A stretch of DNA of 32,000 nt from an uncultured Actinomycetes bacterium (lineage in GTDB: Bacteria; Actinomycetota; Actinomycetes; S36-B12; CAIYMF01): assembly GCA_963843975.1 (NCBI GenBank), contig CAWJMG010000001.1:450001-482000 (forward strand), read 5' to 3'. The notes under the pieces are model-generated. The model did not search any database. It worked only from the letters and a program-made list of their open reading frames with translations, and was not told the DNA's origin. The position numbers and the translations under genes are program-made. The first letter of the stretch is position 1, and every line of letters begins with the position of its first letter. Shown here piece by piece: positions 1,066 to 21,453 of the stretch.

Positions 1066-1094
1066 CTCAGGCGGCCCTCCCCGGTGCCGATGAG
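1066..1094 (+). promoter_or_regulatory. Candidate FliA (sigma-28 class) promoter in the flhB-flhA spacer, CTCAG-N16-CCGATGAGG
   Basis: CTCAG at 1066-1070, an exact 16-nt spacer, then CCGATGA at 1087-1093. The same motif and spacing recur at 9325-9297(-), 10506-10535(+) and 21453-21425(-). Confidence 0.55.
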
Positions 1095-1173
1095 GCAGGT
1101 GCCAGGACGGCATGCAGGGACCACGGACGGGCGGACCCGGGATCGAACGATCCCGCAGGCTCGAAGGACTCGC

Positions 1174-3240
1174 GTGCCCAACCGACGTGTCAGCCAGTAC
1201 GCCGTACCGGTGGCTGTCGTCGGCATCATCACGATGATGATCGTGCCGCTGCCGCCGGTCGTGCTCGACCTGCTCATCACGGTCAACATCGCCGCCGCGC
1301 TCTCGATCCTGCTCGCCTCGATGTACGTGCGCCGCCCGCTCGACTTCGCGATCTTCCCCGCGCTGCTCCTCGTCGCCACGCTCTTCCGCCTGGCCCTCAA
1401 CATCAGCGTCACGCGCAACGTGCTCACGAACGGCTTCGCCGGCAACGTCGTGGACGCGTTCGGCCACTTCGTGATCGGCGGCTCGCTCGTCGTCGGCCTC
1501 GTGATCTTCATGATCCTGATCGTCATCCAGTTCATCGTGGTCACCAAGGGTGCCGAGCGCGTCGCCGAGGTCGGCGCCCGCTTCACCCTCGACGCGATGC
1601 CCGGCAAGCAGATGGCGATCGACGCCGACCTCAACGCCGGCCTCATCAGCGATGACGAGGCCCGGCGGCGCCGGGCCGACGTCGCGGCCGAGGCCGACTT
1701 CTACGGCGCGATGGACGGTGGCTCGAAGTTCGTCAAGGGCGACGCCATCGCCGCGATCATCATCACCGTCATCAACCTCGTCGGCGGCATGACGATCGGC
1801 ATCCTGCAGCGCGGCATGAGCGCGGCGGACGCCGCGACGACGTACAGCCTGCTGACCGTGGGCGACGGTCTCGTCTCGCAGATCCCGGCCCTCATGCTCT
1901 CGGTCGCGACCGGCCTCATCGTCACGCGCGCCAGCACCGAGAACGACATGGGCTCGGACGTCATCGGCCAGTTCGCCAAGCAGAAGCGCGCCATCCAGGT
2001 CGCCGGCGCCGGCGTCGTCGCTCTCGCCCTCGTGCCCGGACTGCCCAAGGTCCCGTTCGTCCTCGTCGGCGGCGGCCTGCTGTTCATCTCGACGCGCCTC
2101 GAGCACGTCGCCTCCGCCCAGGCCGAGCGCGAGGCCGCCGAGGCCCTCGAGGCCGCCGGCCCGGCCGGACCCGCCCCCGACTCCCCCGAGGCCCTCCTCG
2201 CGGAGATGCGCGTCGACCCGGTCGAGCTCGAGCTCGCCTACGACATGGTCGACCTCGTCGACGCCAGCGTCGGCGGCGACCTGCTCGGCCGGGTGAAGGC
2301 CCTGCGCCGCAAGGTGGCGCTCGAGCTCGGCGTCGTCCTGCCGCCCGTGCGCACCCGCGACGACCTCGAGCTGCCGCTGTCGACGTACCGCATCCGCGTG
2401 CACGGCGTGGAGCTCGGTCGCGGCGAGGCCCCTCCCGGCCACGTGCTGGTGATCGGCGACGGGCTCTCCGGCATCCCGGGCACCGACACGCGCGAGCCGG
2501 TGTTCGGCCTTCCCGCCCGCTGGGTGCCCGGCACCTACCAGCACCAGGCCGAGCTCTCCGGCCACACGGTCGTCGACCGCTCGTCGGTCGTGATCACGCA
2601 CCTCGCCGAGATCGTGCGCCAGAACGCCGGTGCGCTGCTCTCGCGCGAGGACGTCCGGACCCTCGTGGACACCGTCCGCTCCTCGCACCCGTCCGTGGTC
2701 GAGGAGCTCACGCCCGCCGTCCTCACCCTCGGCGAGATCCAGCGCGTGCTGCAGGCCCTGCTCGACGAGCGCGTGCCGGTGCGCGACCTCTCCCGCATCT
2801 TCGAGGCCCTCTCGGCCCGCGGCCGGTCCGCCGGCGGTCAGAGCACCGAGGCCCTCGTCGAGGCGTCCCGCTCCGTCCTCGGCCCTGCGATCTGCGCGAG
2901 CCTCGCCGTCAACGGCGCGCTGCACGCGATCACCTTCGATCCGCTGCTCGAGCAGGACCTCCTCGCGTCGCTGCGCCCCTCAGACGGCGGCGACGTCGTG
3001 ACGGTCGACGCGAACGTGCTCGGCGCCGTCGTCCGCGATCTCGGCCGCCTGGTCGAGCAGGCGGAGCAGTCCGGCTTCTCGCCCGTCCTCGTGTGCAGCG
3101 CCCCGCTGCGTGCACCGCTCCGTCGCCTCCTCGGCGGCGAGCTTCCCCGACTCGCTGTGCTCGCCTACGGCGAGCTCGGCGGCCCGATCGACGTCCACAC
3201 CCAGGGAGTGGTGAGCCTTGTCCACGCGCATGCTTCTTGA
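1174..3240 (+). CDS. flhA: Flagellar type III export protein FlhA
   Basis: ORF 1084..3240. It has the typical FlhA N-terminal TM region (VPVAVVGIITMMIVPLPPVVLDLLITVNIAAALSILLASMYV), the conserved FVIGGSLVVGLVIFMILIVIQFIVVTKGAERVAEVGARFTLDAMPGKQMAIDADLNAG block and a large cytoplasmic C-domain. I placed the start at GTG 1174, which has GAAGGA at 1163-1168 five nt upstream. GTG 1084 is the longest alternative but lies inside the promoter-like motif. Confidence 0.9.
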   Translation: MPNRRVSQYAVPVAVVGIITMMIVPLPPVVLDLLITVNIAAALSILLASMYVRRPLDFAIFPALLLVATLFRLALNISVTRNVLTNGFAGNVVDAFGHFVIGGSLVVGLVIFMILIVIQFIVVTKGAERVAEVGARFTLDAMPGKQMAIDADLNAGLISDDEARRRRADVAAEADFYGAMDGGSKFVKGDAIAAIIITVINLVGGMTIGILQRGMSAADAATTYSLLTVGDGLVSQIPALMLSVATGLIVTRASTENDMGSDVIGQFAKQKRAIQVAGAGVVALALVPGLPKVPFVLVGGGLLFISTRLEHVASAQAEREAAEALEAAGPAGPAPDSPEALLAEMRVDPVELELAYDMVDLVDASVGGDLLGRVKALRRKVALELGVVLPPVRTRDDLELPLSTYRIRVHGVELGRGEAPPGHVLVIGDGLSGIPGTDTREPVFGLPARWVPGTYQHQAELSGHTVVDRSSVVITHLAEIVRQNAGALLSREDVRTLVDTVRSSHPSVVEELTPAVLTLGEIQRVLQALLDERVPVRDLSRIFEALSARGRSAGGQSTEALVEASRSVLGPAICASLAVNGALHAITFDPLLEQDLLASLRPSDGGDVVTVDANVLGAVVRDLGRLVEQAEQSGFSPVLVCSAPLRAPLRRLLGGELPRLAVLAYGELGGPIDVHTQGVVSLVHAHAS

Positions 3241-4721
3241 GGGTCCTGACATCAGGACGCTCCTCGCACAGGTCCGCGAGGAGCACGGTCCGGATGCCCG
3301 CATCGTGCACGCCGAGCGCGTGCGCTCCGGCGGCGTCGGCGGCTTCTTCGCCAGGCAGCGGTTCGAGGTGACCGTCGAGATCGACGGCGACGCCTCGGGC
3401 TCGGCGACGACGCCCGACCAGCTCGCCCAGCAGTTCTCGGCCGGATCCGGCGACAGCTTCACGCCGTCCGCCCGGCCGGCTCCCCGCCCGACCCCTGCCC
3501 CCTCGCTCGACCGCATCGAGCCGATCGAGGCCCCGGTGCCTGTCACGAGCCTGCGCCCGGTCGGCTCCGTCGCCCGCGGCGAGGCCGCGCTGGCGGCGAA
3601 GCCGCTGCCGTGGGCCCAGCCCCGGCCCGACGCCGCGGGCGCACCCGTCGACGCGCTGGTCGCCGCCATGGACCGTGCCGACGGCGCCGACGCCGGCGAC
3701 CGCCGCGGCCCCTCGCTCGTGCCGAGCGCGCTCACGGACCCGTTCACCCCCGGCCGTCTCCCGGTCGAGCCGATGCTGCCGATCCTGGACGAGGCGAGCC
3801 GCGCGGCCGGGATCGACCCGCGCCCCCTGACCCCCGTCGGCCCCCTGACCGTCGCCGCGGCCGAGGCCACCCCGCTCGGCGACCTCGTCGGCTGGCTCGC
3901 GACCCAGCAGGCCGCCCTCGCCGACGCCGTCACCGCCCGCACCCCGGCCGCCGCACCCGCGCCTGCCCCGGCCCCCACCGCTCCCTCCGTCGACCCGGCC
4001 GTGCTCGCCGGCATCGTCGCGCGCGCCGGCCTCCTCGCCGACGCCCCCGTCGTCGAGACGCCCGCCGCACCGGCTGCACCCTCGACGCCGATCGCGGACG
4101 CCGTCCAGCGCGAGCGCACCATGGCGACCGTCACGCCGCTCCCCGGCGTGGCCGCCACCGCGACCCGGCCGGCCGCACCGCGCGCGCCGCGCCGCCCCGG
4201 CGACGTCCTCGTGCTCGTCGGCGACGCCGGCCCCGCGTTCGAGACCGCTCGGGCCCTCGCCGCCTCGCTGCGCGTCCCGGCCGACCGCGTCCGCGTCGTC
4301 TCGCACGCCCCCGTCGCCGGCCTCGCCGAGGAGCAGCGCATCGTCGACGTCCTCGAGGCCCGCCTCGCCGGCGCCCAGCTCGCCATGGAGCGCACCCCCG
4401 GCATCGTCGTCGTCGACGCCCCTCTCGGGCTCGTCGCCGACGCGCACGGCTGCGACTGGGTCGACGACGTCGTCACCGCCCTCGACCCCACGGCCGTCTG
4501 GGCCGTCGTGGACGCCACCCGCCGCCACGACGACCTCGTCCGCTGGCTCGGCGTCCTCCCTGAGCCTCGAGGCCCTCGCCGTCCACGGTGTCGCGGTCAC
4601 GAGCGACCCCGAGGCCGTGCACCACCTCGGCGTCCCCGTCGCCCTCGTCGACGGCCGCGCCGTTCCCGACCCGACGCCCGCGCCGACCCCGGAGCCGACC
4701 GCCCGGCGGAGGACCTCATGA
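3218..4721 (+). pseudogene. FlhF-like SRP-type GTPase homologue with degenerate GTPase motifs; the frame is broken by an apparent +1 shift near 4556-4566
   Basis: The N-terminus MLLEGPDIRTLLAQVREEHGPDARIVHAERVRSGGVGGFFARQRFEVTVE matches the FlhF B-domain pattern. The C-terminal half aligns block by block with the FlhF G-domain (VLVLVGDAGPAFETARALAA / VVVDAPLG / VVDATRRHDD / VAVTSDPE / VDGRAVPDP). GC3 collapses in the 3218 frame after about 4558 and is near 100 percent in the next frame from 4566 to the TGA at 4719-4721. Alternative start at ATG 3230. Confidence 0.65.
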
Positions 4722-5002
4722 GGCTCATCACCCCGTCGTCGCTCGTGCTCGGCCTGCTCCTCGCGAGCCCGGCCCTGATGGCGGCCTTCAACGACCCCTC
4801 GGCCGACATCACGCCGGCGCTGCTGCGCTTCGTGCTCGCGGTGCTCGTCGCCGGCGCGGGCCTCTCGTTCCTGCGCGGCATCGTCGGCGCCTACCAGTCG
4901 TCCTCGATCCGCGCCGCCCAGGACCGTGAGAACACCATCACCACGCTGTCGCCGGCCACCGGCCAGGTCCTCATCGCCAGCGACGAGGTCCTCCCCGCCT
5001 GA
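4718..5002 (+). CDS. Small membrane protein (94 aa, two predicted TM helices), function unknown
   Basis: ATG 4718 overlaps the frame-shifted FlhF-like stop in an ATGA junction at 4718-4721. The sequence MRLITPSSLVLGLLLASPALMAAF...LLRFVLAVLVAGAGLSFLRGIVGAY is hydrophobic and GC3 is high. In the ORF track it is hidden inside the composite 594-aa ORF. Confidence 0.6.
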   Translation: MRLITPSSLVLGLLLASPALMAAFNDPSADITPALLRFVLAVLVAGAGLSFLRGIVGAYQSSSIRAAQDRENTITTLSPATGQVLIASDEVLPA

Positions 5003-5747: not shown

Positions 5748-5996
5748 CTACTCGGTCGGCGGGGTGGTGCGGGCGGCTACGGCTGCGGTGAGCGCCGACA
5801 CGGCGGCGGCATCGGGTGCGGCGGCGGCCTTGTTGGCGGCCTCGATGGCCTCGAAGACCTCGGAGCGGTGCACGGGCACCTCGCGCGGCGCGTCGACGCC
5901 GATGCGGATGATGTCGCCGCGCACCTCGAGGACGGTGACGACGACGTCATTGCCGATGACGACGCTCTCGCCGACCCGGCGGCTCAGCACCAGCAC
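5748..5996 (-). CDS. csrA: Carbon storage regulator / flagellin translational repressor CsrA
   Basis: MLVLSRRVGESVVIGNDVVVTVLEVRGDIIRIGVDAPREVPVHRSEVFEAIEAAN matches the CsrA consensus almost residue for residue. The start is GTG, preceded by GGGAGGAG. An Ala-rich C-terminal extension is present. It lies immediately downstream of fliW. Confidence 0.93.
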   Translation of the reverse strand: MLVLSRRVGESVVIGNDVVVTVLEVRGDIIRIGVDAPREVPVHRSEVFEAIEAANKAAAAPDAAAVSALTAAVAARTTPPTE

Positions 5997-6024: not shown

Positions 6025-6468
6025 TCAGGCCGCCAGCGGTGCGCGCAGCGGGAGCGACGGGTCGTCCAGGACGACCTGCGCCGCCGTCTGCGCAGCGGTG
6101 TTCACGACGATCGGCGCCATGAGGTTGGCCGTCGACTCCGCGAGACTATCGCCCACGGTCACCATGAGGAGCACCAGCGCGTCGGCCGGCGCCGTGTCGG
6201 AGGTGCCGAGGCCCAGCCGGACGGCGGTGACATCGTCGATCTCGGGGGCGTAGTCGGGGAAGAACGCCACCGACGGGACGACGACGAAGCGGGCCGCGGG
6301 GTCGTCGAGGCTCTGCAGGTCGAGGACCAGGCCGCTCTCGTCGAGGCGCACGAGGACGAAGCGGGTCGCGCCGGGGAAGCCGGGGATGCCGTCGGCGAAC
6401 TCCAGGACGGGCAGGTCCGGGTCGGTGCTCACGCTCACGTCGTCTCCTCGCGTCAGGACGCTCATCAT
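6025..6468 (-). CDS. fliW: Flagellar assembly factor FliW
   Basis: 147 aa starting MMSVLTRG. It has the FliW-like core LEFADGIPGFPGATRFVLV...FVVVPSVAFFPDY...TANLMAPIVVN. ATG 6468 overlaps the flgL stop in an ATGA junction, and csrA follows it. Confidence 0.85.
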   Translation of the reverse strand: MMSVLTRGDDVSVSTDPDLPVLEFADGIPGFPGATRFVLVRLDESGLVLDLQSLDDPAARFVVVPSVAFFPDYAPEIDDVTAVRLGLGTSDTAPADALVLLMVTVGDSLAESTANLMAPIVVNTAAQTAAQVVLDDPSLPLRAPLAA

Positions 6469-7355
6469 CGCAGGAAGTCCATCAGGGAGGGCTGGATCAC
6501 CTTCGCGGTGGCGCCGAGCGCCGCCTGGTAGGACACCTGAGCCACGTTGAGGTCGTAGATCGTCTGGGCGAGGTCGATGTCCTCGATGCTCGACAGCGAG
6601 GTCGTCAGCTCGTCCGTGTGCAGGGTCACCGAGGTCACGGCGCTGTCCAGTCGGTTGTAGCGGGCCCCGACGTCGGTGAGCGCGGTGGTCATGCGCGCGC
6701 TCACGGCGTCCAGGTTGGTCAGGTCGGTGCCGAGGTTGGCCGGCGTGGTGCGCATGTCGTTGACGATCGAGGTGAGCGTCGAGAACAGGTCGGCGCCCGC
6801 CGGGCCGAACGCCTCTTGCCCGGTCACGTCCACGCGGACCGAGGTGGCCGAGCCGACCTCGCGGGTGACGATGCCGGTGTCGCCGAGGTACGCGCCCGTG
6901 GTCGGGTCGTACGCCGAGGAGCCGGACGTCGTGCCGCCGAAGAGGGGGCGGCCGAGGTAGGTCGTGTTGGCCGCGGCGAGCAGGTTCTTCTGCAGGCCCT
7001 CGACCTCGGTGGCGAGCGCGGCGCGCGACGTCGGCGTCATCGTGCCGTTCTGGCTCTGGACGACGAGCTCGCGGACGCGGCGCACCTGCTCGTTCATGCT
7101 CTGCAGAGCCGAGTCGGTGGTGCCGAGCCAGGCCTTGCCGTCGTCGGCGTTGCGCGCCCACTGCTTGGTCTGCGCCAGCTCGGACCGGATCCGGAGCGCG
7201 GAGGCCGTGCCGGCGGGGTCGTCGCTCGGCTTGGTGATAGTGCGACCGGAGGTCATCCGCTGGTTGATGCCGGCGAGCCGCGACTGGCTCGACTGCAGCC
7301 CCAGCATCGACTGGTTCACCATCATGCGCTGGGTGACGCGCATCCCTGCGTCCAT
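6465..7355 (-). CDS. flgL: Flagellar hook-associated protein 3 FlgL
   Basis: MRVTQRMMVNQSMLGLQSSQSRLAGINQRMTSGRTITKPSDDPAGTA is a typical FlgL N-terminus, and the C-terminal flagellin-like heptads are present. The start is ATG 7355 or, more like canonical FlgL, ATG 7343. Confidence 0.88.
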   Translation of the reverse strand: MDAGMRVTQRMMVNQSMLGLQSSQSRLAGINQRMTSGRTITKPSDDPAGTASALRIRSELAQTKQWARNADDGKAWLGTTDSALQSMNEQVRRVRELVVQSQNGTMTPTSRAALATEVEGLQKNLLAAANTTYLGRPLFGGTTSGSSAYDPTTGAYLGDTGIVTREVGSATSVRVDVTGQEAFGPAGADLFSTLTSIVNDMRTTPANLGTDLTNLDAVSARMTTALTDVGARYNRLDSAVTSVTLHTDELTTSLSSIEDIDLAQTIYDLNVAQVSYQAALGATAKVIQPSLMDFLR

Positions 7356-7357
7356 GG

Positions 7358-8731
7358 CTACCTACCCACCATTCCGGTGCGGTTGATGAGGGTGTCGAGC
7401 ATCGAGTCGACAGCGTTGAGCACGCGGCTCGAGGCCTCGTACGCGCGCTGGAACGTGAGGATGGAGGCCATCTCCTCGTCGACGTTGACGCCCGACTGCG
7501 ACTCGCGGGCAGCGTCGATGCCGTTGGCGACGGTCTGCTGCGTCGTGAGGCGGTTCGTGACCGTCTGGCTGGTCTGGCCGAGGTCGGCGACGAGCGAGCG
7601 GTAGCTGGCGTCGGCGCCGGTCGCGGAGGCGGCGAGCCTCGCGATCGAGGTGGCTACGCCGACGTCGAGCGAGGCACCGCCGGCACCAGGGGCCACGGCC
7701 GAGGCCGCGACCTTCCGCGGGTCGGTGACCGCGAGGCGGAGGGTGGCGGCCGTCGTACCGGTGAAGAAGGCGCCTCCTGCGGCGCCCGTCAGGTCGAAGC
7801 CGGTGGTGTGCAGCGCGTTCACGCTCGAGGCGAGGTTCGCCGCGACGGGGTCGAGGCGTGCGCTCCAGGCCGGGATCCCGCTGGTGGCGGCGGAGACGAG
7901 GCCCTTGAGCTCGCCGCCGGTGGCCTGGACGGGCGAGCCGTCGGCCGCCCAGGTGAGGGAGATCGCGCTGCCGGAGCCGGTGAGGCTCATCTGCCGGGCG
8001 CGGTCGCCCTCGACGAGCGGGGTGCCGCCGACCATGACGCGCATGGAGCCGGAGTCGTCGGTGCTGGCGACGCCGCCGACGAGGTCGGCCAGCTTCATCG
8101 CGAGGACGTCGCGCTGGTCCGAGAGCTCGTTCACCGGGAACCCGGCGTCCTGCGCCCGCGTGATCGAGGTGTTGAGCGTGGCGACCTGCGCCGCGATCTG
8201 GTTGACCTGGTCGACGTCCGAGCGGGCCTGCCCGCCGACCGCCTGGGCGAGCGACGCGAGCCGCGTCGAGGCCTCGTTGAGCCAGTCGGTCACGGTGGCA
8301 GCGCGCTGCAGCAGCGCCGTACGGGTGCCGAGGTCGGCGGGCTGGTTCGCGACGTCGTGGAACGAGGACCACAGGCCCGACAGCGCGGTGGAGAGGCCGT
8401 TGTCCGAGGGCTCGGGGAAGAGCTGCTCGACCTGTCCGAGCACGGTCTGGGTCGTGGTCAGGTCGGCGAGGCCGCCGTGAGCCTGCTGGCCGCGCACCTC
8501 GAGCAGCGCGTCGCGCAGTCGGTCGACGCCGGTGACGGTGACGCCGCCGGTGAAGGAGGTGCCCGACCAGATGCCGGCGACCGCGGGGGCACCGACGGAG
8601 TTCATGAGGACGCGCTGGCGCGAGTAGCCGTCGGTGTTCGCGTTCGCGACGTTCTGGCCCGCGATGTCGAGCGCACGGCGCTGCGCCGTGAGGCCGGACA
8701 GCGCGACGGAGAGACCGTCGAACGAACCCAT
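7358..8731 (-). CDS. flgK: Flagellar hook-associated protein 1 FlgK
   Basis: The N-terminus MGSFDGLSVALSGLTAQRRALDIAGQNVANANTDGYSRQRV and the C-terminus GVNVDEEMASILTFQRAYEASSRVLNAVDSMLDTLINR are hallmark rod/hook/HAP terminal motifs. Confidence 0.92.
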   Translation of the reverse strand: MGSFDGLSVALSGLTAQRRALDIAGQNVANANTDGYSRQRVLMNSVGAPAVAGIWSGTSFTGGVTVTGVDRLRDALLEVRGQQAHGGLADLTTTQTVLGQVEQLFPEPSDNGLSTALSGLWSSFHDVANQPADLGTRTALLQRAATVTDWLNEASTRLASLAQAVGGQARSDVDQVNQIAAQVATLNTSITRAQDAGFPVNELSDQRDVLAMKLADLVGGVASTDDSGSMRVMVGGTPLVEGDRARQMSLTGSGSAISLTWAADGSPVQATGGELKGLVSAATSGIPAWSARLDPVAANLASSVNALHTTGFDLTGAAGGAFFTGTTAATLRLAVTDPRKVAASAVAPGAGGASLDVGVATSIARLAASATGADASYRSLVADLGQTSQTVTNRLTTQQTVANGIDAARESQSGVNVDEEMASILTFQRAYEASSRVLNAVDSMLDTLINRTGMVGR

Positions 8732-8733
8732 GG

Positions 8734-9231
8734 TCAGATCGCCTCGTCGAGCAGGGCGGACCGCGTACGACGGAGGTCGACCTCCACCCGTCCGCTCGGC
8801 GCGTAGGACTGGGGGGACTCGCTGGCGCCGTCGAGACCCGCGAGCACGGCCTCGGTGGCGCGCGACGCGGCGATCGTCAGCTCCTTGTTGGCGTCGGCGG
8901 AGTGCTGGATGCGCGCGGACAGGGTGATGAAGGCGGAGTGGTGCTCCTCGAGCACGTAGCCCCAGGGCTCCGGGGCCTTCTCGGCGAGGGCGCGCAGGCT
9001 CGGGTCAGGGTCGAGGCCGAGCATCACGGCGGCGAGCTCGAACTCGACGGCGCGCTCGAGCTCGATGCTGCCGACGCGCTCGAGGACGGCCTCGATCTCG
9101 CGGCTCGCGCGCGGCAGCCACTCGGCGTCCCCGGAGACGAGCAGGAGGTTCTGCTCGTGCAGCTTGAACAGCAGGGTGTCGAGCAGGTCGCGCTCACGCC
9201 AGAGCAGGCGGGACAGCTGCGCGAAGTCCAT
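8734..9231 (-). CDS. flgN: FlgN-family flagellar export chaperone
   Basis: 165-aa helical protein (MDFAQLSRLLWRERDLLDTLLFKLHEQNLLLVSGDAEWL...) in the flgN position directly upstream of flgK. ATG 9231 is preceded by AGGAGG eight nt upstream. The 182-aa version would start inside the leader. Confidence 0.75.
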   Translation of the reverse strand: MDFAQLSRLLWRERDLLDTLLFKLHEQNLLLVSGDAEWLPRASREIEAVLERVGSIELERAVEFELAAVMLGLDPDPSLRALAEKAPEPWGYVLEEHHSAFITLSARIQHSADANKELTIAASRATEAVLAGLDGASESPQSYAPSGRVEVDLRRTRSALLDEAI

Positions 9232-9296
9232 CACGTGGACCTCCTGTCGGGGTTCAGCCGGTGTGCCGGTGCCAGGTCCCACGACCTGACGAGACC

Positions 9297-9325
9297 CCTA
9301 TCGGGGTCCGGCGGCGGGATCTGAG
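9297..9325 (-). promoter_or_regulatory. Candidate FliA-class promoter of the flgN-flgK-flgL-fliW-csrA operon
   Basis: The minus strand reads CTCAG (9325-9321), a 16-nt spacer, then CCGATAGGG (9304-9296). It sits about 65 nt upstream of the flgN ATG. Confidence 0.55.
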
Positions 9326-9613
9326 GTGTTTGCGCTCCGTGTCCGCGAAGAGTCGCCACCGATGCACGCGGAGTGATGACACGGGCCCCGGCACGCATGT
9401 ACGGGTCCTGCAAACTCTCGGCCCGCTCTCCGATGTCGCAGCGGGGCCTCATCAGACCCACCGCCACCTCTCGTAGACCCTTGGTACGGGCACGGGTGCT
9501 CACGGTTGCTCACCAAAACCCCGTGTCGGCGTTGAGGTTCAGGAGTTGCCCACCTCGCTGAAGCGAGCCTCAGATCCGAGGCTTCTGAACGCCGGATCAG
9601 CAACTCTCTCCTC

Positions 9614-10477
9614 ATGACCGCGCTTGCAACCGACACCCGCGACAACCACGAGCTCATCACGACGCACATGCCGCTCGTCGGCTACATCGTCCGTGAGATC
9701 GCCGTCCGCCTGCCCCGCCACGTCGACCTCGGCGACCTGCACTCCGCCGGCCTCCTCGGCCTGGTGCAGGCGGCCCGCGGGTTCGACGAGTCGCGCGGCG
9801 TCCCCTTCAAGCGCTACGCCAGCACCCGCATCCGCGGCTCCATCGTCGACGAGCTGCGCAGCCGCTCGTGGGCCAGCCGGTCGGTGCGCCAGGCCGGCCG
9901 CCAGCAGGCCGAGGCCGTCGAGGCCCTGTCCGCCATCCTCGGGCGCACGCCGACGCAGGCGGAGGTCGCCGAGCACCTCGGTGTCACGACCGCCGAGCTC
10001 GACGCCGTGCAGGACGACCTTCACCGCACGACCGTCCTCTCCCTCGACGCGGCCCCGAGCCCCGAGGCCATGGAGGCCGCTCTCCCCCACGACGAGATCA
10101 GCCCCGAGGGCGAGCTCCTGCGCTCCGAGGAGCACCGCTACTTGCACGCCGCCGTCGCCCAGCTCCCCGAGCGCCTGGCGACCGTCGTGACCATGTACTA
10201 CCTGCAGGGCCGCCCGATGGCCGACATCGCCGAGGTTCTCGACGTCACCGAGAGCCGCGTCTCGCAGATGCGCGCCGAGGCGCTCGTGCTCATCAAGGAC
10301 GGCATGAACAGCGCCCTGGACCCGGAGCGGGTCGAGGAGTCCGAGCGCCCCGGCGGCTGCGTCGACCGTCGTCGTACGGCGTACTTCGCCGCCGTCGCCC
10401 AGGCCGGCCAGCTGCGCAAGGTCACCGCTGGCACCTCCGTGCCCGCGGCGCGTGCTGCTGTCTACGCGACTGCCTGA
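9614..10477 (+). CDS. fliA: FliA/WhiG-family (sigma-28 class) RNA polymerase sigma factor
   Basis: Region 2 is HMPLVGYIVREIAVRLPRHVDLGDLHSAGLLGLVQAARGFDESRGVPFKRYASTRIRGSIVDELR. Region 4.2 is MADIAEVLDVTESRVSQMRAEAL. It lies between the flagellar operons. There is a tail of about 52 aa after region 4. Confidence 0.9.
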   Translation: MTALATDTRDNHELITTHMPLVGYIVREIAVRLPRHVDLGDLHSAGLLGLVQAARGFDESRGVPFKRYASTRIRGSIVDELRSRSWASRSVRQAGRQQAEAVEALSAILGRTPTQAEVAEHLGVTTAELDAVQDDLHRTTVLSLDAAPSPEAMEAALPHDEISPEGELLRSEEHRYLHAAVAQLPERLATVVTMYYLQGRPMADIAEVLDVTESRVSQMRAEALVLIKDGMNSALDPERVEESERPGGCVDRRRTAYFAAVAQAGQLRKVTAGTSVPAARAAVYATA

Positions 10478-10505
10478 ACCAGCAACAACTTCTCTCCGAA
10501 AACAT

Positions 10506-10535
10506 CTCAGCCCCAAGCCCCCGGCACCGATGAGG
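10506..10535 (+). promoter_or_regulatory. Candidate FliA-class promoter of flagellin
   Basis: CTCAG (10506-10510), a 16-nt spacer, then CCGATGAGG (10527-10535). It sits 56 nt upstream of the fliC ATG. Confidence 0.6.
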
Positions 10536-10543
10536 TAGCCGTA

Positions 10544-10585
10544 GCCCACGGACGGGCTTGCAACTCACCCAACTGACAAGGATGA
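10544..10585 (+). promoter_or_regulatory. Flagellin mRNA leader with two CsrA-type GGA sites, one in a hairpin loop and one overlapping the Shine-Dalgarno
   Basis: The hairpin GCCC-ACGGAC-GGGC (10544-10557) presents GGA in its loop. ACAAGGAUGA (10576-10585) matches the CsrA SELEX core ACARGGAUGU and contains the SD AAGGA eight nt before ATG 10591. Confidence 0.55.
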
Positions 10586-10590
10586 AGACA

Positions 10591-11382
10591 ATGGGTCTCC
10601 GCATCAACCAGAACATCGAGGCGCTCAACGCCTACCGCAACCTCTCGGCCACGTCCGGCCAGATGAGCAAGTCGCTCGAGAAGCTCTCGAGCGGTTTCCG
10701 CATCAACCGTGCCGCGGACGACGCTGCCGGCCTCGCGATCTCCGAGGGCCTGCGCTCGCAGGTCGGCGGGCTCAAGATGGCCGTCCGCAACGCTCAGGAC
10801 GGCGTCAGCCTCGTGCAGACCGCTGAAGGCGCCCTCGGCGAGGTCCACTCCATGCTCCAGCGCATGAACGAGCTGGGCGTGCAGTACAACAACGGTGTCA
10901 ACAACACCGACTCGAAGTCCGCTCTGAAGAACGAGTTCGACACCCTGAAGACCGAGATCGGCCGCATCACCGACAACACCTCGTTCAACGGCGTCAAGCT
11001 GTTCGACTCGGCCAACAGCCCGCTGTCGTTCCAGGTCGGCTACGCGTCGTCCGACAAGATCGACGTCAAGCTCGAGACCGTCGACGTCAGCAAGCTGGAC
11101 ATCGCCTCGACCACGGTCGCCGACGACGTCCAGGGCGCCATCACCGGCATCTCGACCTCGCGTGGCAACCTCGGTGCGGTCCAGAACCGCTTCGAGCACA
11201 CCATCAACAACCTCAACGTCGCGGTGGAGAACCTGTCCGCGTCGGAGAGCCGGATCCGCGACACCGACATGGCGTCGGAGATGGTGAACTTCACCCGCTC
11301 GCAGATCCTGAGCCAGGCCGGCACGTCCATGCTCTCGCAGGCCACCCAGGCCCCGCAGAGCGTGCTCAAGCTCCTCGGCTGA
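10591..11382 (+). CDS. fliC: Flagellin (short form, D0/D1 only)
   Basis: It has the N-terminus MGLRINQNIEALNAYRNLSATSGQMSKSLEKLSSGFRINRAADDAAGLAISEGLRSQ and the C-terminus LGAVQNRFEHTINNLNVAVENLSASESRIRDTDMASEMVNFTRSQILSQAGTSMLSQA. I chose ATG 10591 rather than TTG 10558 because of the SD and the canonical MGLRIN start. Confidence 0.95.
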   Translation: MGLRINQNIEALNAYRNLSATSGQMSKSLEKLSSGFRINRAADDAAGLAISEGLRSQVGGLKMAVRNAQDGVSLVQTAEGALGEVHSMLQRMNELGVQYNNGVNNTDSKSALKNEFDTLKTEIGRITDNTSFNGVKLFDSANSPLSFQVGYASSDKIDVKLETVDVSKLDIASTTVADDVQGAITGISTSRGNLGAVQNRFEHTINNLNVAVENLSASESRIRDTDMASEMVNFTRSQILSQAGTSMLSQATQAPQSVLKLLG

Positions 11383-11403: not shown

Positions 11404-11438
11404 GTGTGGGGGCGTCCCGGTTCGGGGCGCCCCCACAC
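11404..11438 (+). terminator. Strong GC hairpin after fliC (intrinsic terminator or attenuator before fliD)
   Basis: GTGTGGGGGCG (11404-11414) pairs perfectly with CGCCCCCACAC (11428-11438), plus 4-5 inner pairs. It begins 22 nt after the fliC stop. Confidence 0.6.
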
Positions 11439-11491: not shown

Positions 11492-12850
11492 GTGGCGAAC
11501 GCGATCGACGGCATCGGCACCATCAACGTGGCGCAGCTCGTGAGCTCGCTCATGAGCGTCGAGGGCGGTCAGCAGAAGCTCCTGCAGACCAAGCAGACCA
11601 AGGAGCAGACGGCGCTCACCGCGCTGCAGTCGCTCAACACCCAGACCCTTGCCATCCGCACAGCCGCCGAGAGCGTCATCGGCAGCGTCATCTCGCCGCG
11701 GGCCTGGAACAACACGACCGCGAGCTCCTCGACCGCGTCGGTCGCCGCCTCCTCGGTCGCCACCGCCCAGTCCGGCGAGCTGTCCTTCGACGTGACGTCG
11801 GTCGCCGCGACGCATCGCGTCCTCGTGGGTGCCCCGGTCCCCTCGGCGCAGACGCTGTCGAACGGCACGGTCACCTTCACATCGGTCGACGGCTCGGTCT
11901 CGAGCGTCGACCTCTCGAGCGCCAGCACCATCACCGACGTCGTCGCCGCGATCAATGCCGCCGGCATCAGCGGTGTCAACGCGATGGCCGTCCAGGTGAG
12001 CCCCGGCCTGTTCCGCCTCGGCCTCAACGCCAACAAGTCCGGTGCCGCCGGCGCCTTCACCGTGTCCGGCCTGGAGTCCTCGCTCGGCGCCACGACCGTC
12101 GTGAGCACGGGCAAGGACGCGTCGATCAAGATCGGTCCCGCGGACGCCGACGTCGTCACCTCGCCGACCAACACGTTCATCGACGTCTCGCCCGGCCTCA
12201 CCTTCACCGTCTCCAAGCCCGAGACAGGCGTCACGGTCTCCGTCGGGCGCGACACGGCGGGCATGACCAAGCAGGTCCAGTCGATCGTCGACGCCGTGAA
12301 CGCGACGCTCGGCACGATCTCGGCGAAGACGACGTACAACGCCAGCACCAAGAGCGGCGGGCCGCTGCTCGGCGACCAGCTCCCCGTGCGCCTGTCAGGA
12401 GCACTGGCCACCGCCACCCTCGGCGGCGGAACCCTTGCGCAGTACGGCATCCAGCTCGACCGCACCGGCCAACTCGTGTTCGACAGCGCGACGTTCCAGG
12501 GCTCCCTCGCGAGCGATCCCGCCGGGACCAGCAAGGCCATCGCAGACTTCGCCACCCGCGTCGGATCCGTCGCCAAGAGCGCGACCGAGTACGGCACGGG
12601 GTGGATCACCACCGCGATCAGCAACCGGCAGTCGCGCATCACGGACCTGGGGAAGACCATCAGCGACTGGGACTCGCGCCTCGCGGCGCAGAAGTCGGCC
12701 CTCACGACGCAGTTCGCGTCGCTCAACGCCCAGCTCACCAAGATGAACAACCAGGCCTCCTGGCTGTCGTCGCAGCTGGGCTCCACATCCAGCAGCAAGT
12801 CGAGCGGCAGCGGCGTGAGCACGTCCAACACAGCCAGCTCGAGCGGCTGA
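11492..12850 (+). CDS. fliD: Flagellar filament cap protein FliD (HAP2)
   Basis: GTG start with GAAGGAG seven nt upstream. The N-terminus is IDGIGTINVAQLVSSLMSVEGGQQKLLQTKQTKEQTALTALQSLNT and the C-terminus is RITDLGKTISDWDSRLAAQKSALTTQFASLNAQLTKMNNQASWLSSQL. Confidence 0.9.
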   Translation: MANAIDGIGTINVAQLVSSLMSVEGGQQKLLQTKQTKEQTALTALQSLNTQTLAIRTAAESVIGSVISPRAWNNTTASSSTASVAASSVATAQSGELSFDVTSVAATHRVLVGAPVPSAQTLSNGTVTFTSVDGSVSSVDLSSASTITDVVAAINAAGISGVNAMAVQVSPGLFRLGLNANKSGAAGAFTVSGLESSLGATTVVSTGKDASIKIGPADADVVTSPTNTFIDVSPGLTFTVSKPETGVTVSVGRDTAGMTKQVQSIVDAVNATLGTISAKTTYNASTKSGGPLLGDQLPVRLSGALATATLGGGTLAQYGIQLDRTGQLVFDSATFQGSLASDPAGTSKAIADFATRVGSVAKSATEYGTGWITTAISNRQSRITDLGKTISDWDSRLAAQKSALTTQFASLNAQLTKMNNQASWLSSQLGSTSSSKSSGSGVSTSNTASSSG

Positions 12851-12866: not shown

Positions 12867-13355
12867 ATGAACCCCCGCCCCGGCGTGGCCTCGGCCTACA
12901 CCGCCAACTCGCTGACGACCGCGTCGCCGCAGAAGCTCATCGTGCTGCTGTACGAGCGGCTCGTGCTCGACCTCGTCCGTGCCGAGGACGACATCCGCAA
13001 CGGCCGTTCCCCGCACCAGCAGCTCATCCACGCGCAGGACATCGTGATGGAGCTGCTCGGCTCGCTGAAGCCGGAGCTGTGGAGCGGCGCCACCGGCCTC
13101 ACCAACCTCTACACGTTCCTCCACACCGAGCTGGTCAGCGCGAACGTCCGCCGCGACGCCGACAAGGTCGTGTCGTGCCGCGAGCTCGTCGAGCCGCTGC
13201 TCGACGCGTGGCGCCAGGCGTACGAGAGCACCCTCGCGGCGGCGGCGACCGCCGGCAGCGCAGCCGCGCTCGCCGCAGCCTCCGCGAGCGGCAGCGTCGT
13301 CGACCTCGCCGGCGGCGCGCCCGCCGCCCGTCAACCTCTCTCGGTCACGGCCTGA
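12867..13355 (+). CDS. fliS: Flagellin-specific chaperone FliS
   Basis: AYTANSLTTASPQKLIVLLYERLVLDLVRAEDDI...HAQDIVMELLGSLKPE...LTNLYTFLHTELVSANVRRDADKVVSCRELVEPLLDAWRQAY fits the FliS four-helix pattern. AGGAGAG serves as the RBS. Confidence 0.9.
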   Translation: MNPRPGVASAYTANSLTTASPQKLIVLLYERLVLDLVRAEDDIRNGRSPHQQLIHAQDIVMELLGSLKPELWSGATGLTNLYTFLHTELVSANVRRDADKVVSCRELVEPLLDAWRQAYESTLAAAATAGSAAALAAASASGSVVDLAGGAPAARQPLSVTA

Positions 13356-19112: not shown

Positions 19113-21360
19113 AGGAGCCTCCACGGGCAGAGGCCACGAGGGCCGGGATGTCGACGAGGTCGGTCACGAAGCCCTGGATGACCGCGGAGCCCTGGAGGCC
19201 GCCGCGCAGGCCGACCTCGCTGAGGACGACCTCCTCCTCGACGACGTCGAGGATCTCGTCGACCACGAAGCCGATGGGCTGCTCGCCGTCGTGACGGTGG
19301 ACGACGACCGCGTAGGTGTCGGAGTGCACCGGGGCTGAGAGTCCGAGGAGCGATCCGACGTGCACGAGCTTCATGAGGTCGCCGCGGTACTTCACGACCT
19401 GGGCGTCGCCCGCGTGCTCGACCTGGTGGTCGGGGAACTCCTCGAGGCGCGCGATGTCGCCCATGGGCAGCGCGATCCGACGGTCCTCGCCGACGCGGCA
19501 GATGAGCAGGCCGTTGGCGTCCCAGTCCTGGGTCTCGTGCGACGCCTCGACGAGCGAGCTGGAGCCCGAGGTCACGTTCACGGCGTTCGCGCGCTGCGAC
19601 AGGCCCGACACGTCGAGGATCAGCGCGACGCGGCCCTCGCCGGTGATGGTGGCGCCGGCGAAGCCCTCGACGGGCTTGATCTGACGCGACAGCGGCCGGA
19701 CGACGATCTCCTGGGTGTCGACGACGTCCTCGACCACGAGGCCGAACTGGGTGCCGTCGGCCTGCAGCACGACGATGTTCATCGACTCGGCCGGGTCGCG
19801 GTCGAGCTCGAGCTGCTCGGCCAGGAAGACCAGCGGCAGCAGCGAGCCGCGCAGACGGTGCACCGGGGCTCCGGCGACGTGCTCTATCGCCGGGCCGTTG
19901 CCCTCGCCGTCGCCGTCGAGGCGCACGAGCTCGAGCAGGTTGACCTGCGGGATGGCGTAGAGCTCGCCACCCTGGCGCACCACGAGCGCGGGGATGATCG
20001 CGAGCGTCAGCGGGATGCGGACGCGAACGGTCGTGCCCTCGCCGACGACGCTCTGCAGGTCGACCGAGCCGCCGATCTTCTCGATGTTGGTGCGGACGAC
20101 GTCCATCCCGACGCCACGGCCGGACACGTTCGTGACGGCCTCGGCGGTGGAGAAGCCGGGGCGGAAGATGAGGTCGAGGATCTCGCGGTCGGACATGCGC
20201 GCGAGCTGCTCGCGGGAGACGAGGCCCTTCTCGACGGCCTTGTCGCCGACGCGCACCGGATCCATGCCCTTGCCGTCGTCGGTGACCTCGACCACGACCT
20301 GGCCGGACTCGTGGTACGCCTTGAGGAGGAGCGTGCCCTCGGCCGGCTTGCCGGTGGTCGCACGGTCGGCCGGCGACTCGAGGCCGTGGTCGATCGCGTT
20401 GCGCACGAGGTGGGTCAGCGGGTCCTTGACCGCCTCGAGCAGCGTGCGGTCGAGCTCGGTCTCGCGGCCCTCCATCACGAGGCGCACGGACTTGCCGCAC
20501 TGCGCACCGAGGTCGCGCACGACCCGGGGCAGGCGCGACCAGACGCCGTCGATCGGCTGCATGCGGGTCTTCATGACCCCTTCCTGCAGCTCGCTCGCGA
20601 TGAGGTTGAGGCGCTGGGCAGCGCGCTGGAGCTCGACGCTCTGCAGGTCGGCGGTGTACTGCACGACCTGGTTGCGGGTGAGCACGAGCTCGCCGACCAT
20701 GCGCATGAGCTGGTCGAGCAGGCCGACGTCCACGCGGATGCTGGAGTCGGCGACGCTGCGGCGGTGCTCCTCGTCGCCCGAGGCGGGGGCGGCGGCGGGC
20801 GCGGGCGTGGCAGCGGGGGCGACAGGCGCGGGGGCTGCGACGGCCTCGACCACGACGGGCGCCTCGACGACGGGCCCGGGCGTCGGCTCGGCCTCGGGCG
20901 CAGGCACGGGGAGCTCGACCGCTGCGACCGGGTCGGCAGCCTCCGCGGCAGGCGCGGGCTCGAGGCAGCGGGCCAGCGCGGCCTCGACCTCGGAGGTGTC
21001 GAGGTCGCCCTCGACACCGGTCTGCTCGATCTGGCCGAGCAGGGCGCGGACGACGTCCACCATCTGCAGCAGCACCGTGGTGATCCCGGGTGTGAGCTCG
21101 AGCTTGCCGTCGCGCAGCTTGGACAGCACGTTCTCGCCGACGTGGGTGACGGCCTCGAGGCGGTTGAAGGCGAGGAAGCCGCTCGTGCCCTTGATCGTGT
21201 GGATCGTGCGGAAGATCGAGGCCAGCAGGGGGCGGGAGGAGGGGTCCTTCTCGAGCTCCACGAGGGCGCGGTCGAGCTCGTCGAGGTTCTCGTACGACTC
21301 GACCAGGAACTCCTGGGCGATCTCGTCGAGTCCGTCGGCGAAGACGGGGGTGTTCGTCAT
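19105..21360 (-). CDS. cheA: Chemotaxis histidine kinase CheA (Hpt - Ala/Pro linker - dimerisation - HATPase - two CheW-like domains)
   Basis: Start at ATG 21360 (MTNTPVFADGLDEIAQEFLVES). The Hpt site is FRTIHTIKGTSGF, P3 is IRVDVGLLDQLMRMVGELVLTRNQ, and P4 is DPLTHLVRNAIDHG...GRGVGMDVVRTNIEKIGG. P5 and a second CheW-like block follow at the C-terminus. Confidence 0.93.
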   Translation of the reverse strand: MTNTPVFADGLDEIAQEFLVESYENLDELDRALVELEKDPSSRPLLASIFRTIHTIKGTSGFLAFNRLEAVTHVGENVLSKLRDGKLELTPGITTVLLQMVDVVRALLGQIEQTGVEGDLDTSEVEAALARCLEPAPAAEAADPVAAVELPVPAPEAEPTPGPVVEAPVVVEAVAAPAPVAPAATPAPAAAPASGDEEHRRSVADSSIRVDVGLLDQLMRMVGELVLTRNQVVQYTADLQSVELQRAAQRLNLIASELQEGVMKTRMQPIDGVWSRLPRVVRDLGAQCGKSVRLVMEGRETELDRTLLEAVKDPLTHLVRNAIDHGLESPADRATTGKPAEGTLLLKAYHESGQVVVEVTDDGKGMDPVRVGDKAVEKGLVSREQLARMSDREILDLIFRPGFSTAEAVTNVSGRGVGMDVVRTNIEKIGGSVDLQSVVGEGTTVRVRIPLTLAIIPALVVRQGGELYAIPQVNLLELVRLDGDGEGNGPAIEHVAGAPVHRLRGSLLPLVFLAEQLELDRDPAESMNIVVLQADGTQFGLVVEDVVDTQEIVVRPLSRQIKPVEGFAGATITGEGRVALILDVSGLSQRANAVNVTSGSSSLVEASHETQDWDANGLLICRVGEDRRIALPMGDIARLEEFPDHQVEHAGDAQVVKYRGDLMKLVHVGSLLGLSAPVHSDTYAVVVHRHDGEQPIGFVVDEILDVVEEEVVLSEVGLRGGLQGSAVIQGFVTDLVDIPALVASARGGSYV

Positions 21361-21424
21361 TGCGCGTGGACCTCGCTGCCCTCCATGGCCCCGGGCACCG
21401 TCCTGCCGGGGTTCCTGCACCAGC

Positions 21425-21453
21425 CCCATCGGTCGCCCGGGGGCCGGGCTGAG
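21425..21453 (-). promoter_or_regulatory. Candidate FliA-class promoter of the che operon
   Basis: The minus strand reads CTCAG (21453-21449), a 16-nt spacer, then CCGATGGGG (21432-21424). It sits about 65 nt upstream of the cheA ATG. Confidence 0.55.

Follow-up and report, generated by a model that had tools for sequence, protein, structure and literature searches.

A "flagellar" promoter consensus has been described with the -35 element TAAA and the -10 element GCCGATAA (PMC8325347). Enteric FliA promoters accordingly read TAAA-N15-GCCGATAA, and the consensus of SigD from Bacillus subtilis is TAAA-N15-GCCGATAT (PMC5200910). For motile actinobacteria other elements have been reported. The consensus of the FliA factor (WhiG1) of Actinoplanes missouriensis is CTCA-N16-17-GCCGAACT (Hashiguchi 2020, cited after the Denis et al. 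preprint, PMC12871210), and all flagellar genes of this organism are said to have promoters that are recognised by FliA1/FliA2 (PMC13083903). A phylum-wide consensus for WhiG1/2 promoters, given by Denis et al. 2026 (PMC13595943), consists of the -35 element XT(C/A)AX and the -10 element GCCGA, with one mismatch allowed in the first two -10 bases. According to the same paper, such promoters are predicted repeatedly in the flagellar clusters of Actinoplanes, Cellulomonas and Geodermatophilus, with flagellin among the most frequent predicted targets. Finally, the WhiG factors of Streptomyces and Rubrobacter, which belong to the WhiG2 clade, read T(A/C)AA-N16-GCCGATAA, where conservation is strongest in the central CGA. 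RsiG and c-di-GMP govern these factors, whose targets are sporulation or pilus genes and not flagella.

Here we analysed a stretch of 32,000 nucleotides from an uncultured actinobacterium, called the window in the following, in which a flagellar and chemotaxis cluster is adjoined by unrelated metabolic genes. The cluster contains four copies of a bipartite motif, CTCAG-N16-CCGATRRGG. Like the promoters of Actinoplanes FliA1/FliA2, these sites combine the -35 element CTCA with the gap CTCA-N16-xCCGA and the CCGA core. As in Actinoplanes, there are several of them in one flagellar cluster, one stands before flagellin, and the sigma gene lies within the cluster. The two differ in the -10 tail, which is CCGAT(G/A)(A/G)GG at the window sites and not GCCGAACT, and in the base after CTCA, which is G in the window and mostly A in the Actinoplanes-group loci. 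Additionally, several Actinoplanes loci have a motif copy about 180–190 nt upstream of fliA, whereas the window does not.

In comparison with the classical sigma-28 promoters of enteric FliA and B. subtilis SigD, the spacing is identical once TCAG is aligned with TAAA, the geometry of the window sites being TCAG-N15-xCCGAT in all four cases. The CCGAT core is shared as well, and the targets are likewise flagellin, hook-associated proteins and chemotaxis genes. In contrast, the -35 element is TCAG and not TAAA, G-rich bases replace the AT-rich -10 tail, a FliA-class promoter also stands before flhA, and no FlgM was found in the window. In enteric bacteria flhA is an "early" export-gate gene. 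An earlier note on this DNA had equated CCGAT with the core of the sigma-28 -10 element, which agrees with the published consensus, as does the spacing. The same note had pointed to CTCAG in place of TAAA. This difference is real, but it is not unusual, being a published actinobacterial -35 variant. With the WhiG2-clade promoters the window shares the sigma family and the -10 core; its sigma gene is however embedded in the flagellar cluster, as is typical of WhiG1 and unlike WhiG2. The window promoters are a further instance of the published actinobacterial FliA/WhiG1 type, in an uncultured lineage labelled Nanopelagicales, a lineage that is not named in the available parts of the text of PMC12871210 and PMC13595943. 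Because promoters of the CTCA...CCGAT type have been described before in motile actinobacteria, the finding holds but is nothing out of the ordinary.

Four sites and the units behind them

The pattern CTCAG-N16-CCGATRRGG matches the window at exactly four places, 1066-1095(+), 9296-9325(-), 10506-10535(+) and 21424-21453(-), and this search reproduced the sites and sequences quoted in the earlier note. In 100 dinucleotide-preserving shuffles the pattern gave 0 matches (0 expected), so that its recurrence is indeed very unlikely by chance, as had been supposed. When one mismatch was allowed in CTCAG-N16-CCGAT, we obtained 7 matches in the window versus 3.2 expected, the three extra copies all being intragenic; two mismatches gave 37 matches versus 44.7 expected, which is chance level. 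These scans of the window with one or two mismatches, which could have revealed weaker extra promoters, furnished only intragenic matches at chance level, and the looser pattern T[CA]A-N16-18-CCGA added no intergenic site. Because the mismatched versions occur at chance level, only the four exact copies stand out. Exact, mismatch and relaxed scans therefore agree with the statement, made earlier by eye, that no other copy with this spacing exists in the window.

All four motifs are intergenic and lie on the strand of the gene that follows. Their ends are 55–78 nt away from the start codon in four of four cases, close to the 55–80 nt estimated before. The base that precedes CCGA is G at one of the four sites and C, A and A at the other three, and the canonical GCCGA is therefore imperfect in the window. 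Additionally, a G sits 6 nt past the motif at every site. This G is probably the transcription start, and the starts so predicted fall at the lower edge of the 6–9 nt that had been expected.

Gene identities were assigned with Pfam, and start codons were corrected from the sequence. The first site, P_flhA, is composed of CTCAG at 1066-1070, a 16-nt spacer and the -10 element CCGATGAGG at 1087-1095 on the plus strand. It is placed between the stop codon of flhB (38-1027, +) at 1027 and the GTG of flhA at 1174, 78 nt ahead of the latter, with a predicted start at G1101. P_flhA would drive flhA (1174-3240, +), the first gene behind it, which encodes the FHIPEP export gate (Pfam FHIPEP, E = 3e-248), together with the following genes. 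After flhA comes a long ORF from 3218 to about 4800-5002 (+), whose first ~90 residues match the N-terminal region of FlhF weakly (TIGR03499, 1e-10, below the cut-off) and which has this match only; neither a Pfam domain nor a GTPase domain was detected in it. At this position the relatives have a gene of 455–529 amino acids, followed by a gene of ~100 amino acids. In the window the two appear to be fused in frame, which could be either a frame problem or a real fusion.

P_flgN on the minus strand has CTCAG at 9325-9321 and, behind the spacer, CCGATAGGG at 9304-9296. It stands 61 nt ahead of the flgN GTG at 9234, with a predicted start at G9290. The unit that it would drive is flgN-flgK-flgL-fliW-csrA, which extends from 9234 down to 5748 and comprises flgN (8734-9234, -; Pfam FlgN), flgK (7358-8731, -; FlgK_D1), flgL (6465-7355, -; Flagellin_N/C), fliW (6025-6468, -; FliW) and csrA (5748-5996, -; CsrA). 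The order is identical in the syntenic relatives L081, L083 and L084, and with its position beside flagellin we take it to resemble the B. subtilis layout.

P_fliC consists of CTCAG at 10506-10510, the spacer and CCGATGAGG at 10527-10535 on the plus strand, 55 nt ahead of the fliC ATG at 10591; the predicted start is G10541. It would drive the flagellin gene fliC (10591-11382, +; Pfam Flagellin_N/C). Just 22 nt past the fliC stop codon lies a GC-rich, perfect-looking hairpin of 16 bp that has no U-tract, at 11404-11438(+). Its fold has z = -3.6, and 0 of 200 shuffles were as stable; it probably terminates a monocistronic fliC mRNA or stabilises its 3' end. No FliA-type promoter was found between this hairpin and fliD (11492-12850, +), which is followed by fliS (12867-13355, +).

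Finally, P_cheA on the minus strand has CTCAG at 21453-21449, the spacer and CCGATGGGG at 21432-21424, 63 nt ahead of the cheA ATG at 21360, with a predicted start at G21418. Behind it lies the che operon, from 21360 down to 14861 (-), which comprises cheA, cheW, cheB, cheR, a response regulator (RR), cheX, a cheY-like gene and orf162. These calls come from Pfam, except that cheR rests on synteny with L081, which the content of the operon likewise follows. P_cheA would head this unit, cheA-cheW-cheB-cheR-RR-cheX-cheY-orf162.

Conservation in relatives and the spacing control

The nearest genome is L001 (JBFWNE010000024.1), a MAG labelled Candidatus Nanopelagicales bacterium, with a FliA that is 86% identical. 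Exact-protein look-ups gave further syntenic relatives at 81–82% (L081/L082 and L083) and at 71% (L084/L085). Although the closest genome carries this label, the window has 71% GC and a complete-looking flagellar and chemotaxis cluster. The name Nanopelagicales is usually tied to the streamlined, low-GC and non-motile freshwater acI members, from which the window differs.

In L001, L081, L083 and L084 the motif is kept at three of the window's positions: 77–78 nt upstream of flhA, where the spacers differ, 60–83 nt upstream of flgN and 53–56 nt upstream of fliC. When L002 and L004 join these four genomes, the distance to flagellin becomes 51–59 nt. At the conserved sites the motif is retained amid divergent 16-nt spacers and flanking intergenic sequence. 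Relatives of cheA were covered less fully than they could have been in the single metagenome scan; among the retrieved loci, L086 has CTCAG-N16-CCGAT with a different spacer at 3308-3333, just upstream of a cheA gene whose product is 93% identical to the window CheA over residues 197-751. Further away, CTCA(G/A)-N16-CCGA(T/A) is found about 50–70 nt upstream of flagellin in Nocardioides, Actinoplanes and relatives, Pilimelia, Motilibacteraceae and Acidothermaceae, and the relaxed motif stands ahead of flgN in 35 of the 45 upstream regions listed, the window included.

The spacing was examined in 83 non-redundant, fliA-anchored actinobacterial loci, which amount to 1.36 Mb. Here CTCA[AG]-Nk-CCGAT gave 85 matches at k = 16 and only 1–13 at every other k between 10 and 23, the next-highest value being 13 at k = 17. 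The control with the two motif halves in reverse order gave 1–10 matches. Such a rigid 16-nt gap is expected from a sigma factor that contacts two promoter elements. The loci were chosen because they contain fliA and flagellar context is thereby enriched, a bias that leaves the spacing control unaffected.

The k = 16 matches stand directly upstream, and on the same strand, of homologues of the window motility and chemotaxis genes in 65 of 85 cases (flgN 23, fliC 17, fliA 13, che 5, flhA 4, fliD 1 and fliS 1), and no match falls within any gene recognised as homologous to a motility gene of the window. Among the other 20, three stand before FlgB and further ones before an MCP, a GGDEF diguanylate cyclase, PIG-L-type proteins or a family-2 glycosyltransferase; these gene categories are ones already reported for WhiG-type regulons. 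For five of these 20 no ORF was called downstream. When positions were counted over 140 sites, CCGA was preceded by G in 99 and followed by T in 89, the positions two and three bases past this T were rich in G, and A stood three bases before CTCA in 76, as for example in gAAAACatCTCAG at fliC. A purine is found 6 nt past the motif in 102 of the 140.

The sigma factor and competing readings

A gene for a sigma factor of the FliA/WhiG1 type is located at 9614-10477 (+), within the flagellar cluster between flgN and fliC, which is a trait of the WhiG1 clade. The product contains the sigma-70 regions 2, 3 and 4 (Pfam) and reaches 201 bits on the NCBIfam model TIGR02479 FliA_WhiG, above the cut-off of 189.6, which confirms that a FliA/WhiG-type sigma is encoded in the same window, as had been noted. 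Its best matches, at 49–57% identity, are FliA proteins encoded within such clusters in Actinoplanes, Nocardioides, Pilimelia and others, and homologues carry the name FliA from JGI.

We believe, with a probability of about 0.9, that the four sites serve as promoters for RNA polymerase bound to this cluster-encoded sigma-28 family factor, a reading that is strongly supported. What the sequences show directly is a motif with strict spacing and a consistent placement and orientation, which is conserved where the genes are orthologous, and a sigma gene of the matching family. From this we infer that the factor encoded at 9614-10477 would read the sites and that transcription would begin at the predicted positions. 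CTCA(G) would then be the -35 element, contacted by sigma region 4, and (G/C/A)CCGAT(R)(R), 16 nt downstream, would be the -10 element, contacted by sigma regions 2 and 3.

The sites could also be promoters that are read by another alternative sigma factor whose gene lies beyond the window, such as a further FliA/WhiG paralogue or a factor resembling SigB/F. Several actinobacteria indeed possess two or more FliA/WhiG paralogues whose promoter specificities overlap, the Actinoplanes loci hold two fliA homologues, and the window covers only 32 kb of the host genome. We nevertheless give this a slim chance. The gene at 9614-10477 sits between two of the four promoters and is of the cluster-associated type that the literature ties to flagellar genes, and in the syntenic relatives the cluster holds a single fliA.

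It is very improbable that the motif is instead the operator of an activator or repressor of motility, with the true promoters elsewhere in the same intergenic regions. Such an operator would be common to co-regulated motility units, as the motif is, and in A. missouriensis some flagellar promoters do have a binding site upstream for a regulator, TcrA. However, the motif is asymmetric and bipartite, it has a single orientation relative to the gene and a rigid 16-nt gap, and its CCGAT core and geometry are those of sigma-28 promoters. A purine is conserved at a fixed distance, 6 nt past the motif, in keeping with a start site. Additionally, a scan of 9200-10700 for the sigma-70 consensus and for terminators, which covers the region upstream of fliA (9326-9613), gave no match. 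That the recurrence is a functionless by-product of base composition or a short dispersed repeat, as the GC-rich genome and the C/G-rich motif spacers might suggest, is effectively refuted by the shuffles, by the retention of the motif at orthologous positions in different genera, by a spacing profile that peaks at N16 alone, and by spacers that are mutually dissimilar and thus do not form a repeat family.

Under the preferred reading, promoters recognised by the cluster-encoded factor, one would look for a FliA-type motif upstream of fliA as a sign of autoregulation. It is absent there in the window and in the close relatives, so that a sigma factor other than FliA presumably starts the cascade. 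Actinoplanes-group loci (L034, L039, L050, L052 and others) have, at about 8.6–9.2 kb of the locus, CTCAA-N16-CCGATGG before a gene for a PIG-L (LmbE-like) deacetylase just upstream of fliA. Together with the copies ahead of fliA in other Actinoplanes loci mentioned above, this suggests FliA autoregulation or co-transcription, without a counterpart in the lineage of the window. Furthermore, no FlgM-type anti-sigma factor was found in the window with Pfam and NCBIfam, even when unassigned ORFs were included. This is in line with the report that FlgM, like FlhF, is missing from the later actinobacterial classes (PMC10746217).

Leader hairpins and a possible role of CsrA

Compared with the promoter spacers, the mRNA leaders that follow the promoters show stronger conservation. 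In the fliC leader we found a hairpin at 10543-10558, AGCCC-ACGGAC-GGGCT, whose GGA is located ~40 nt before the ATG, and an AAGGA Shine-Dalgarno sequence at 10578-10582, which also contains GGA. The genes csrA and fliW are located in the flgN operon, next to the fliC region. In B. subtilis, CsrA represses hag via two GGA stem-loops, the upstream GGA being at -39 to -37 (PMC13443453), and the GGA hairpin and GGA Shine-Dalgarno sequence of the fliC leader resemble the hag sites BS1 and BS2. A hairpin with an invariant A-N-GGA loop lies upstream of flagellin in 33 of 34 actinobacterial loci examined. Its stem covaries: 87% of the cells are paired versus 67% in shuffles, where 0 of 500 reach the observed value, and 48 cells are double changes versus 16, while slid controls gave 24–48%; in this statistic the GGA site with the best stem was chosen wherever a leader offered several candidates.

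The flhA leader contains the hairpins TGCC-AGGAC-GGCA at 1100-1112 and CCACGGACGG at 1121-1130, and also a covarying hairpin, CGGGATC-GAAC-GATCCCG, at 1138-1155. In the cheA leader there is GGCA-GGACGG-TGCC at 21407-21394 on the minus strand. The GGA hairpins of flhA and cheA are kept in close relatives (L001, L081, L083, L084; L086), and those of the cheA type are absent from more distant cheA leaders. The GGA-loop hairpins look like CsrA-binding elements; those of fliC occur throughout the phylum and those of flhA and cheA in this lineage only, and the latter two leaders may be extra CsrA targets beyond flagellin. The core CAC?GGA[CT]GG is not enriched window-wide, with 10 copies versus 6.2 expected, of which 4 lie in ~200 nt of leader sequence; weight can be given only to its clustering in the three leaders and to its retention in them. 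A scan of the whole window at the Rfam gathering thresholds gave no family, and this includes the leader elements.

In summary, we obtained a confident promoter and operon map for the flagellar and chemotaxis cluster of an uncultured high-GC actinobacterium labelled Nanopelagicales. The map adds a further lineage to the FliA/WhiG1 promoter type CTCA-N16-GCCGA, for which conservation and spacing speak independently. For sigma-28 itself no new question is opened, and the practical value of the map lies in annotation and in the prediction of regulons in MAGs. More promising leads than the promoters are the RNA elements in the leaders and the lack of a recognisable anti-sigma factor. One may speculate, and we regard this as a tentative idea that is rather less probable than not, that in a lineage without FlgM one class of FliA-type promoters drives the early gene flhA, the late filament genes and the che operon alike, and that expression would be coupled to assembly post-transcriptionally by CsrA and FliW, whose genes lie in a FliA-dependent operon, with CsrA acting on flagellin and additionally on the leader hairpins of flhA and cheA. 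If true, this would mean that an expanded CsrA regulon replaces the classical FlgM checkpoint and reaches beyond the flagellin-only action seen in Bacillus.
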